Program-made: the position numbers and the translations under genes | Source of the DNA: Camelus ferus | Lineage: Eukaryota | NCBI RefSeq assembly: GCF_009834535.1 | Contig: NC_045696.1 | Coordinates: 29,452,001-29,516,000, forward strand | Length of the DNA stretch: 64,000 nt | Reading direction: 5' to 3' | Notes under the pieces: model-generated | Told to the model about the DNA's origin: nothing | Seen by the model: the letters and a program-made list of their open reading frames with translations, nothing else | The model's database searches: none | In this document: positions 31,799 to 51,495 of the stretch, in pieces | Layout of the letters: each line of letters opens with the position of its first letter | Numbering within the stretch: the stretch's first letter is position 1

Positions 31799-34439
31799 GT
31801 GCAGCTCTTAAGGAATCACAACGGTTCACGAGTGGAATGAGCCGTGATAAAGTATGTCTGAGCCAGGATGGAAAGGTGAGTATTCTGAATACGATTCAAT
31901 GATGATTTGGGCTATGTAGTCCCTCCCTCTCTAACATTTCAGTTTCTCATGTTTGAGAGAGGCTTCAGAGGCCTCCTAGTGCACACACCCACGGAAACCT
32001 CTCCAGCTCTCTGTCACAGCCCCTCACACGATCGTCCACGCCTATTGATGAAGAATCGACTTTTCTCTTAAGCCAACTGATTCCATTTGTTAGACATTCT
32101 TCTCCATATTGAATACAGTCTTGATTTCTTGGGACTATTTCTACTCAGAAAAGCCATAAAGAATAAGTTTGAAATACAGTAACTTTAAAATATTTAATAC
32201 TAGCTATGCTATCTCCATGTGTCCTCTGCATACCTTACTAAATACTTACAAAATAAATTCCCAGAACCTTTAATGATTCCTCATTGGATATGGCTTTTTA
32301 CTCTTCCCCCATCTTTGAATTCATGCTGGTTTGCTAGATTTTGGTTGACTAAGAAAGGAACACAGAAGTGAACCAAGGGTCCGAGTGTGGTCTGAAGAGT
32401 ACAGAACCAAGCAGGCCGAATCCTTCCCCTTGGTTACAGGCAGCGTGCTGCTATGAATGCACATGATGACGAACATATTATCTATCATGACACAGGTAGA
32501 TTCCTGTTGCAATCGTGTGATCTGCTACAATTTAAGACCAGAGTTTTCACAATGAGCTATTACACATGTTAGTATTATTGCAGTTATGACAAAATAACAG
32601 CTATGGTTACTATGTTCAAATTTATGCTCAAATGCCTAGAAATGGTACTTAATACAAAAATCCACAAGTAAATATACATGGATACTTGGAAATTTAAGTT
32701 TCTTCCAGCCTAAGGAGGGAGACAGGCGTCTAAGTGCTTTGTGTTTTCTCTTCCTGGTAATATAAATATTAAATCTCAGAAATGTTAGTATATTTTTCAT
32801 TACAGTAAAAATGATCACATTAAAAGTGCATGTAAATAACAAACTATGACCATCATTTTAATGCCTAGAGAACCTATATTTGGGTAAAAGATGCAGATAA
32901 ACTCGCCACGGAACTCTTGCTGGGATTGGTGGCTCCGTTTCCCTCCATCCAGGTCAGCCTGCTCTACTACTGCCAGTAAGCTGCGGATGATGTGAGCATA
33001 CAGATTTTATTTAATGGGGAAATACGATAGTGAAAATAAATAGAGACATGGTAAATAAATGAAGCATGGGGGAATGAAAGGAGCTACTAAAATATAAGTT
33101 TACATTTTTGTTCTTCATCCTAGCTCATTAAATACTTGCACAAGTCTTCAAAAAGCATTACACAAAAACAAGAGTACAGTACAGTTTAGAAAATAATGCC
33201 CTAGAATCCTTTTTAAAACATTTGAAATACAGTATCAATTATTCAATTATTGGTAAACAACACAGATTACTGGCAGTAGTGACTGAAGAAAGCAAATATA
33301 TCATGAAAAGCAGTGATTCCCAACCTGTGGGTTGACAATCACTGGTTGTTGTGTCATTATGAGGGTCTCACAGAATGAGTAATTATGTTATTATAAGGGA
33401 CTGGGAATCTATATATGTATTGTTTGAAGACTAAATTATGTTATTATACCCATTTGGTACTATATTTCAAAGAAAGTGCATTTTTTTGGATTAACAAGAT
33501 ATAGGTTCATTTAAAAAGCTGCAGAATTTGAGTTTTTCGCCTATGTATTTTCTCAATCAAGGATACTGAAAGAACAATTGTTATTATCAGGACCAATTTC
33601 TTTTTGACATTGAAAGGGATCATCACACTGAAAATGGTTATAATCTACTCAATGTATATAATTTCTAGCTATGAAGAAAAAGCTTACAAAAGCCATAAAG
33701 TTTCAAAACATCAGTTTAGACCTTTATCTCTGATCTATAATTTAATGAACAAATTCTGCTGTGGTCACTTTTGGAATTACCTAGCCCTGTGTCTATATTG
33801 CCAGGGAACACAACTTCCTTTAGAAAAGGCAAAACTTAAACTCCAGAAATTTCAACAATTTAAAATACTAGATTAAAAGTAATGATTGTGAAAGAGCTTT
33901 ATCATTGTAAATTACTACCACATATTACTCAAGAATCAGGAAAACCCACCTTTTAAGAACACTGCTTAGAACAAACATTTGTAAAGAGGTTATCTGGGCA
34001 ATTGGATTTTTGTTTTTCTGTTCTCTCAGCATTCCCTCACTCCCCATTTCTAATGCACGTGGGGAGACATACACACACACACACACATACACACGACTTG
34101 GGACCCACACAGCACCAACACCCCTACAAAGCTCTGTCTTCCACCAAAGAACATCTCCCTGAAAATATAACTCAGAGCCTATATATACTTGAACTATCTT
34201 CTTCATGTGGTTTCCAATTCTGCAGTAGATAAAACAAATGTAGCAGGACATCGCAACATCTAAACAACACATCTTTTGTTCACAGTTACCTCCCTACACC
34301 TAGCAGAGTGCCTTCTCATAAGAGGGTCTCAATATATCTTTGAAAATGGTATTTAGGATGACAATCCTGATTCACCAAGAACAGCTAAATTACATATCTT
34401 ATTTTTTATACTAGAGGCAAGTAGAAAAATTATCTTATT

Positions 34440-34970
34440 TTCCCATTCACTTATTAAACCCACACAATGTACAAGGCACTGTGCAAGATTAAAAAAAAAT
34501 GACTATGGTGTGATTTTAGTTTACATGAAACTCATAGTCTGTAACGGAAGATAAGAAATGCACATGAATGTCTATAAACAAAGCAGAAAGCAATATGCAT
34601 TGAAATATAGAGCCAAGAAGGGAAGGTAGGATTGACAGCCTGTATAGAAAAAGTTTTGAAGGCTGGGCTAGACTGTTAAGAATTATTTTGTAATTAGGTA
34701 TAAGAAAGTTGAAGATTTTTAAGAAAGGTTGTGACAATCAAGAAAATTAACCTGAAGGTCAAGGGTGGAACAGAATGGACAAAGGAAAGACTGGATCAGA
34801 GAAACCAGCCAGGAATCTAGCAATGGTCCAAGGATAGTGCAAATGGAGATACAAACATAAACCTATGAGATTTTGGATGTGCAACTGACAATACTCAAAT
34901 GTAAGGAAACTGATACTCAATTTGGGGAAATAGATGGAAAGGGAGAATAGTTGTGCCCAAAGACACGCAG
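34440..34970 (-). mobile_element. L2 remnant
   Basis: cattcacttattaaacccacacaatgtacaaggcactgtgc...aactcatagtct...ctagcaatggtccaagg...gagattttggatgtgcaactga. Confidence 0.55.
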
Positions 34971-48759: not shown

Positions 48760-49400
48760 TCAATGATCCTAAATTAAACTCATATTTTCTATTCCCCAAG
48801 CTGGCTACACCTCCTCGCTCTGCTATCCTTAGTAATAATATCACTTCCATCCTTATTGTTCAAAGTGAAACCTTCTATTTTCTTTCCTATACCCCATGTC
48901 CTAACGGTTGCTGAGTTCTCTCACTACAAGAAAGGGCTTCATATACCTGTCTATCCTATTGACATGACTTTAGTTCATGCCCTAATCTTCTTCTACATGT
49001 ACTGAAATTTCTCATAATTAATATCTGTATCTCCAATCTCTCTTCTCATGAAAGCTCTCCTACACACTGGGTACATGAGAACCTTTCCTAATGCACATGT
49101 TCTTATCAAGTAGCTCCCCAGCACAAAAACCTTCCGTGACTCACCATGAAACTACAGAAAAGAGCCTAAAGTAATTAATATGACATTAAAATCTTCTATT
49201 ATGTGATCTCAATCTATCTTTTCAGCTTTATCTCTGAGTACTTCTTTTTATGGTCATCATTCTCCAATTAATCCACTGTACTGTCCATTATCTAAGGATA
49301 TTCTATGATTTCCAACAGCTGGAATGGCCTTCCTTAATTTCTTCTACTACAATTTTATACATTTCTCAAGGCCCAGGCTTAAAAGTCTTTTCTTAATCAA
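48760..49400 (+). mobile_element. L2 remnant
   Basis: ttagttcatgccctaatc...aaaaccttccgtgactcacca...ctggaatggccttcctt...tctcaaggcccaggcttaaa. Confidence 0.55.
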
Positions 49401-51495
49401 TCAATTGATCCACAAATCCATCTCTCTCTCTCATCCAGGCTTTAAGGTCTTTTCCTTAGTCAATCAATCAATCTCTCTCTTGCATTTATTTACTTACTTT
49501 TACATAACCCCTGTTGCCCTGTGGAACCTTCCTGCCCCATCCCATTCACTGCTTCATGCGTCACGTCCTACTTTGGTTTTACACACCTCTTCTCCCCCAC
49601 TTAGGGTCAAGGGAAGTGCTTAACAAACACTGCAGTAGATCCCAAGTGCTCTGTAAATGCATCTTGGTTTGATAATAATCAAAATGATATTCTGATTATA
49701 TGACATTACCAGGTATGGAAGGATTTAGTCTAGGGGCATTACTTCAGCGGTCTAGAGCTGAGAAGGGTTTTGTGCGAGTGGCTACCTGTCTAGTACGTGC
49801 CTGGATTTCTTCATGGAGATGGTGAGGACATTTGCTTCCTGAACAATTCAGCTCTTCTGTAGTTCAGGTAACCCCATTACACTGACTCCCATGATTTGAG
49901 CATTCTCTGTGTTAACTGGGGCATGTTTGAGCTATTACTCACAGCTAAGACCTTCCCTCCTAAATGCTCTGATGTCCTGTGGGATGGCGATCTGGGAAGG
50001 TGGGGGAGAAGATGGAGAACCACCCCTCACCACCCTCAACGTCACCGAGCAGCACAGGGTGGTGGTAGATGCCACAGGCTACTTACCAGACAGCATGGCC
50101 CTTTCCTCCTTTATTGTCAGAGAATCGTTCTGTCATGGCTAACCATTTCATGAAGGGGCCACTTCCTGGAGACTTGGGGGTAATTTCTGATTAAGCTACT
50201 CATAATGATAGCATTCTCCTCCTGAGAAATTTCTCTGGGGAGGTATGACTGAATTCTGCTCCATGGAATACAAAAGGAAACTTGCCAAAGTGACTTCATT
50301 CGTGAAAAGAGACACAAATAGATTTGCCTTTTGTGACGTCTGCGGGTGACATTTGGAACCCTGGCTGTCTCGCGACCATCACAGGTGCCAGCCTTTGGAC
50401 ACTGCTGGCACCCTGAGAGTTGAAAGCAGAAAGGCAGAACGGACCAGGGAACTTGATGATATTGTCACAGTGCTGGGGTCACCCTACCTAAGGGCTTTCA
50501 CTGTTGTGCAAAATGCATTTTCTTTATTACATGAGCCAGTGGAATAGGTGGATTGTAGCTGGAGACACCCCGACACGGAGGACTTCACGTTGGCATCAGA
50601 CATCTTGCGCAGGTGGGAGACATTAATCACTGTGATGCCTTCTGGGGAAGAACACGTTATTTCTACTGCCTGCATAACAATCTGTGCTGGTTTGTTGCTA
50701 GGTCCTGAATCTTCTTCTGCTTTATCTATGGACTGGATAAGTCAGAATCTCTTTAAAATACATAGCACGTTTCATTTTGTAATAATTATCACACATACAA
50801 TGATTAATGTTTGTCTTCTCCAGTAGTTTAAAAGCTCAATGAGGGCAGGGACTATCTGCCAGGAAAACTGCTATGTTTCCAGCACCTAGCACAGGGCTGG
50901 CTGTGTAGGTGCTCAATAAAAGGATGCTTAGTAAACATCTGTGAAAGGAATGAATGGATGATTAAATGAACATATAGAGAGTATCAAAACATTCTCCCTG
51001 TTATTTCCTTTGCTTATGCCTCCCATGCCCTGATTCCTTACCCATTCACGCCTACAAAAGTAAGCTACAGCCTTTATTTTAGGAGACAGGAAACAGAAAA
51101 GGGAAGGGAGCAATCTTTACAGCTACGGTCTGCTAGCTCACTCAGTGGAGAGGGGAACGGAGACAATTCTCAGAGGCAACTTATGAAATATTTTCATAGA
51201 GAAACTACAGTCATCTCCCGTACTACGTACTGGATCAAGATATTATTTAAGAAAACGTTTAAAATCATCCTCTTTAGAGCCAGAATGGAGACTAGGATTA
51301 ATCTGGCATAACTGAACTGAGATTTATCTAAATTTAACTAAAGATTAATCAATCAACTACTTCAAGTCCCTCATTTTTCAGATGGAGAAACTGAGAGCTA
51401 CTGTCCCCAAGATCAGCGTTACTCTTTCTCATGCTCTATGATGTAATGAAACACTGAATGCAGACAGTCATACTCATTGGCAGCAAAAAGGATAT

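Follow-up and report, generated by a model that had tools for sequence, protein, structure and literature searches.

A likely U12-type AT-AC intron in the GBE1 gene of Camelus ferus

The stretch of Camelus ferus DNA analyzed here (the window, 64 kb) carries the C-terminal part of the glycogen branching enzyme gene GBE1 on its minus strand. The GBE1 intron at 51495..31799, the second-to-last coding intron as judged from the window, has AT-AC ends and is very likely a substrate of the minor (U11/U12) spliceosome, as reported for its human ortholog. The probability of this assignment is estimated at about 0.97. The intron is already known: human and mouse orthologs are catalogued, and the human one has been functionally tested. 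An earlier sequence-only reading of the window had placed the intron in the U12 AT-AC class, and the ends, reading frame, branch site, and small nuclear RNA (snRNA) pairing described below agree with that placement.

Junction of the AT-AC Intron

The intron, its signals, and its flanking exons are as follows.

51496..51626, minus strand: GBE1 exon preceding the minor intron, 131 nucleotides, with the 3' end CTA GGA AA; human residues 602-644 and two bases of K645
51485..51495, minus strand: predicted 5' splice site of U12 type, ATATCCTTTTT, at the exon end set by homology; pairs with U11 and U6atac
31799..51495, minus strand: predicted U12-type AT-AC intron, 19,697 nucleotides, phase 2, 36% G+C
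31807..31815, minus strand: predicted branch site TTCCTTAAG, with candidate branch adenosines at 31809 (-11) and 31808 (-10)
31799..31800, minus strand: AC 3' splice site
31681..31798, minus strand: GBE1 exon following the minor intron, 118 nucleotides, with the 5' end G TTC AAA; human residues 646-684, then an ordinary GTAAGT donor

The boundaries read AA/ATATCCTTTTT to TTCCTTAAGAGCTGCAC/G, and the intron begins with ATATCCTTTTTG at 51495 and finishes with GATTCCTTAAGAGCTGCAC at 31799. The junction is fixed by protein homology. The flanking exons align with residues 602-644 and 646-684 of human GBE1 (PDB 4BZY), leaving Lys645 as a single split codon (AA/G).

Splice pairs with GT-AG, GC-AG, AT-AC, AT-AG, AT-AA, and GT-AC ends were tried within approximately 60-100 nucleotides of each intron end. 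This gave 608 donor-acceptor pairs, 56 of which are in frame and free of stops. A single pair, with AT-AC ends, produces the 83-residue reading that contains GKFKIV. Three of the 56 open pairs are GT-AG and all three delete residues, which upholds the sequence-only claim that no GT-AG pair yields the conserved GKFKIV. With AT and AC as termini the reading frame is restored, and because the downstream exon of the window starts with G, the AT-AC junction is unambiguous here. An AT-AG pair ending at 31804 is also in frame, yet it lies only 3-4 nucleotides beyond the branch adenosines and is ruled out by the established spacing.

In the window, the motif ATATCCTTT was found once (1.16 expected), RTATCCTT six times (6.14 expected), and the branch motif plus AC seven times (3.97 expected). 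U12 motifs by themselves are not rare in 64 kb; the evidence is their placement at both of the exon ends set by homology. The joint chance of both motifs falling at the exon ends is 3e-10, or 1e-7 with 10 nucleotides of slack on each side, both being rough figures calculated after the fact.

Intron Signals and Predicted snRNA Pairing

The 5' splice site consensus RTATCCTTT is matched at the exon end by ATATCCTTTTT at 51495. The branch site TTCCTTAAG agrees with the TTCCTTRAY-like consensus in 8 of 9 bases. The identical string is listed as the branch site of the human U12 intron, and its spacing is also the same in human.

The U11, U12, and U6atac snRNA genes were searched for in the 2.09-Gb genome at the Rfam cut-off. 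U12 has one match (157.9 bits), U11 has 10 (best, 132.5 bits), and U6atac has 20 (best, 145.8 bits). In contrast to the single U12, the surplus U11-like and U6atac-like matches are probably mostly retrocopies.

Pairing was scored in a fixed register. Nucleotides 8..1 of U11 can form 8 consecutive pairs with intron positions +4..+11, and nucleotides 16..10 of U6atac form 7 consecutive pairs with positions +4..+10. Nucleotides 18-25 of U12 form 7 of 8 pairs with the branch site; nucleotides 19-25 pair with TTCCTTA, and a G.G mismatch lies past the bulged adenosine. The fixed register was adopted because a free ranking by duplex energy lacked one, and the ranks from that procedure (donor 1257 of 9015 AT/GT sites with U11, acceptor 160 of 3110 AC sites with U12) are uninformative for this reason.

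Splicing of the Human Ortholog

The human GBE1 minor intron, chr3:81499228-81535194 (hg38), is given as U12 AT-AC in the supplements of PMC6717393 (Olthof 2019), PMC11039992, and PMC8280824 (de Wolf 2021). In PMC11039992 the assignment comes from a combination of the IntEREst, IAOD, and MIDB lists, and the supplement file of that paper contains GBE1 once, outside the RBM41 knock-out tables. In the supplement of PMC6717393, Gbe1/GBE1 appears among the minor-intron genes of mouse and human, with the donor GAAATATCCTTT in both. Conservation with human, which the sequence-only reading had called probable and proposed to look up in minor-intron lists, is therefore confirmed by catalogued orthologs in the two species.

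Supplementary data of PMC8280824 report the behavior of this intron when minor splicing is impaired. Upon CENATAC depletion in HeLa cells, retention rises from 0.097 in the control to 0.445 at 24 h and 0.759 at 48 h, with adjusted P values (padj) of 5e-45 and 3e-102, respectively. GBE1 mRNA changes by a log2 value of -0.98 at 24 h and -2.33 at 48 h, the latter being an approximately five-fold fall. In CENATAC-mutant patient cells, retention increases from 0.118 to 0.296 (padj 5e-14). According to the same paper, none of 85 major-class AT-AC introns responds to CENATAC loss. That GBE1 output depends on the minor spliceosome, as had been proposed, is thus borne out in human cells, and by analogy the Camelus ferus intron may be expected to depend on CENATAC as well.

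A further proposal, that slow removal of this long intron could limit output, is not supported. The intron is shorter than both of its orthologs, and retained minor introns are the shorter ones according to PMC6717393. Basal retention of the human intron is 0.04-0.12, near the medians of 0.08-0.13 given for minor introns in PMC8280824. Thus the data do not show that intron removal is rate-limiting in normal cells.

Homologous Proteins and Gene Models

The junction was counted in the top 28 of the 120 homologs listed (P0002-P0029), which are mammal-like and 84-92% identical. The count excludes the other 92, which are distant proteins of fungal, protist, insect, or prokaryote-like character. The pattern PGK[FY][KR]IV is present in 18 of the 28. 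The remaining 10 deviate, six having shortened readings as would arise from GC-AG pairs in the window and four running into the intron. Thirty-five further cluster members comprise 31 with the standard reading, two (hamster) that run into the intron, and two that stop short of the junction. In total, 49 of the 61 mammal-like proteins reaching the junction contain the pattern and 12 deviate. Of the new Logan proteins, 16 reach the junction and all 16 have PGKFKIV.

The warning of the sequence-only reading that annotation may mis-model this junction is substantiated by the 10 deviants among the 28. Macaque and owl monkey have standard models (P0130, P0013, P0140) as well as deviant ones, and the deviant models are therefore likely modelling errors. 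The read-through letters KYPF occur in yak, hamster, and ground squirrel, which indirectly indicates that the donor is conserved in these species. P0006 (Logan, 235 residues, 943-nucleotide contig), identical to human at 228 of 230 positions, covers several exons and then reads through into the intron. It fits a transcript that still contains the minor intron after removal of the upstream ones, as a single record that is silent on rates.

The codon CTA at 51501-51503 (minus strand) encodes Leu at human position 643, a position occupied by Pro in each of the 49 mammal-like proteins with the standard reading. In the 87 homologs that could be parsed, this residue is P in 53, A in 27, S in 5, D in 2, and L in none. 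Leu643 may be a species change, a polymorphism, or an assembly error.

Alternative Explanations

In-frame GC-AG and GT-AG pairs exist near both ends of the intron, and the major spliceosome could act at one of them; the pair 51505/31804, for example, would give GTAFCTFKIV. The six shortened proteins (P0012, P0016, P0021, P0024, P0026, and P0028) and the 100% cryptic-site use reported for the human intron in the tables of PMC6717393 and PMC8034651 agree with such a choice. Against it, residues 644 and 646 of the human crystal sequence are separated by exactly one residue, the new Logan proteins uniformly have PGKFKIV, and macaque and owl monkey also have the standard reading. The cryptic categories in those tables are an extended upstream exon and a truncated downstream exon, which a 2-nucleotide slide by the aligner would explain. 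Use of a nearby major-class pair is extremely unlikely on this evidence. That the AT-AC intron belongs to the major (U2) class has an even smaller probability, close to nil. Major-class AT-AC introns are known (85 in PMC8280824), and in the supplementary data of that paper ZRSR2 mutation has no significant effect on the human GBE1 intron. The strong CENATAC response of the human ortholog stands against the absence of any response among those 85. The donor ATATCCTTT is complementary to U11 and U6atac and is not of U1 type, and a U12 branch site is present at -17..-9. The U2-type AT-AC donor consensus is ATRAG-like; a U1-type donor after AT combined with the lack of a U12 branch site, as expected of that class, is not what the GBE1 intron displays.

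Stepwise removal through internal U12-like sites was also considered. The sense strand of the intron carries two such motifs, ATATCCTT at 49301 and, following a pyrimidine run, GTATCCTT at 33566. RTATCCTT is at chance level in the window, as given above, and no branch consensus with AC or AG is found directly ahead of either internal site. For the human intron, no alternative event is listed among the supplement rows of PMC8280824, including skipping of both flanking exons. Stepwise removal is very unlikely.

Several observations weigh against removal of the intron by the minor spliceosome at the 51496/31798 join. At one position of the branch site, G replaces the C of the usual consensus, which leaves one G.G mismatch with U12. 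The branch adenosines at -11 and -10 are at the short end of the 11-13 nucleotide optimum given for minor introns in PMC6717393. Pyrimidines occupy 9 of 17 acceptor positions (-20..-4), mostly within the branch site itself, and the share is equal at the major-class acceptor of the last exon, so this criterion does not discriminate. We infer use of the join in Camelus ferus from orthologs, namely the proteins and the human crystal sequence. In ZRSR2-mutant samples, retention of the human intron changes from 0.044 to 0.083 with a non-significant padj of 0.38 (supplement of PMC8280824), which makes ZRSR2 a poor test of the dependence of this intron.

The 100% cryptic-splicing scores are the remaining point of this kind. 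In the tables of PMC6717393 and PMC8034651, every sample, controls included, gives the human intron a score of 1.0 for retention and for the use of cryptic 5' and 3' sites. NOP2, GARS, and WDR1 are likewise scored 1.0. These scores for the GBE1 intron are likely an artefact in which the aligner slides the junction by 2 nucleotides, a slide that is possible because the human downstream exon and the intron both begin with AT. If so, the intron is effectively unmeasured in the RNU4ATAC-disease tables of the two papers.

Proposed Mechanism and Outcome of Failure

By the established mechanism of minor splicing, the U11/U12 particle would bind ATATCCTTTTT and TTCCTTAAG jointly, and U6atac would take the place of U11 at the donor. 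An adenosine 10-11 nucleotides from the intron end would form the branch, and AA would be joined to G at the AC end to give the Lys645 codon. If the intron is retained, the frame reads GKYPFCCQ and then a stop, 7 codons into the intron. Failure of splicing would thus remove residues 646-702, the last 57 residues, in the C-terminal domain. Decay of RNA that keeps the intron is likely and would accord with the five-fold mRNA decrease seen upon CENATAC depletion in human cells. Skipping of both flanking exons (249 nucleotides) would preserve the frame and delete 83 residues.

Gene Context

The window contains four GBE1 exons on the minus strand (53418..53234, 51626..51496, 31798..31681, and 24821 onward). 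Joined, they translate without a break into the C-terminal 162 residues. The first is presumably exon 13, and those flanking the minor intron presumably exons 14 and 15, in the human numbering. The two exons not described above are as follows.

53234..53418, minus strand: upstream GBE1 exon, 185 nucleotides, bounded by AG and GT; located by tblastn and translation
24765..24821, minus strand: last GBE1 exon, coding part (VYIP...DLPN, stop), preceded by an AG acceptor

At 24765-24840 (minus strand), the major-class acceptor that precedes the last exon has a weak pyrimidine tract of 9 out of 17. Within the minor intron, internal U12-like donor motifs occur at 33559-33566 and 49294-49301 (minus strand), one of them immediately after a pyrimidine run and CAG. 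No nested RNA gene was found in the intron by Rfam matching. The intron has seven stop-free stretches of at least 110 codons, the longest of 138; none is recognizable by eye, and no homology search was made with them. Tandem repeats comprise eight rows of short simple arrays.

Implications

As a discovery the intron carries little weight, given the catalogued human and mouse orthologs and the published depletion data. No main text linking GBE1 with "minor intron" or "minor spliceosome" was found in the literature searched, which included few subscription journals. As far as searched, the link is present only in supplementary tables and could be overlooked in interpreting intronic variants of GBE1. 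In PMC7507305, the diseases entered for GBE1 are glycogen storage disease IV and adult polyglucosan body disease. For a disease variant at the junction (GBE1 c.1934/c.1935), the literature match that was examined dealt with GAA. Gene models are often wrong at this junction, and the Camelus ferus model at 51496/31798 is worth checking.

In a speculative and rather improbable extension, GBE1 would respond to defects of AT-AC-specific minor splicing with unusual sensitivity. Branching enzyme would then drop far enough to favor polyglucosan build-up when CENATAC or related factors are partly lost, and variants at donor positions +3..+9 or branch positions -17..-9 would be overlooked second alleles in the two diseases named above. 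If this were true, the control scores of 1.0 would have hidden the response of the GBE1 intron in RNU4ATAC disease.

Comparison with Known Introns

The human GBE1 intron shares the gene, codon (K645), phase, TTCCTTAAG branch site, and spacing of the Camelus ferus intron. By eye, all of the first 12 bases and all but one of the last 18 are identical, using the human ends given in the supplement of PMC8280824. The human intron is longer, at 35,967 nucleotides versus 19,697 in Camelus ferus. The human downstream exon starts with AT, making that junction ambiguous, whereas the Camelus ferus exon starts with G. Human residue 643 is Pro and that of Camelus ferus is Leu.

The mouse Gbe1 intron, chr16:70529011-70561023 in the supplement of PMC6717393, is likewise listed as minor and has the donor GAA/ATATCCTTT. 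It differs in its length of 32,013 nucleotides and in its full-consensus branch site, TTCCTTAAC, as opposed to TTCCTTAAG in human and Camelus ferus.

The Camelus ferus intron resembles the CENATAC-dependent A-type (AT-AN) introns described in PMC8280824 in its AT-AC ends and U12 signals. Within that set, the human ortholog has a retention change of 0.66 compared to a class average of 0.36.

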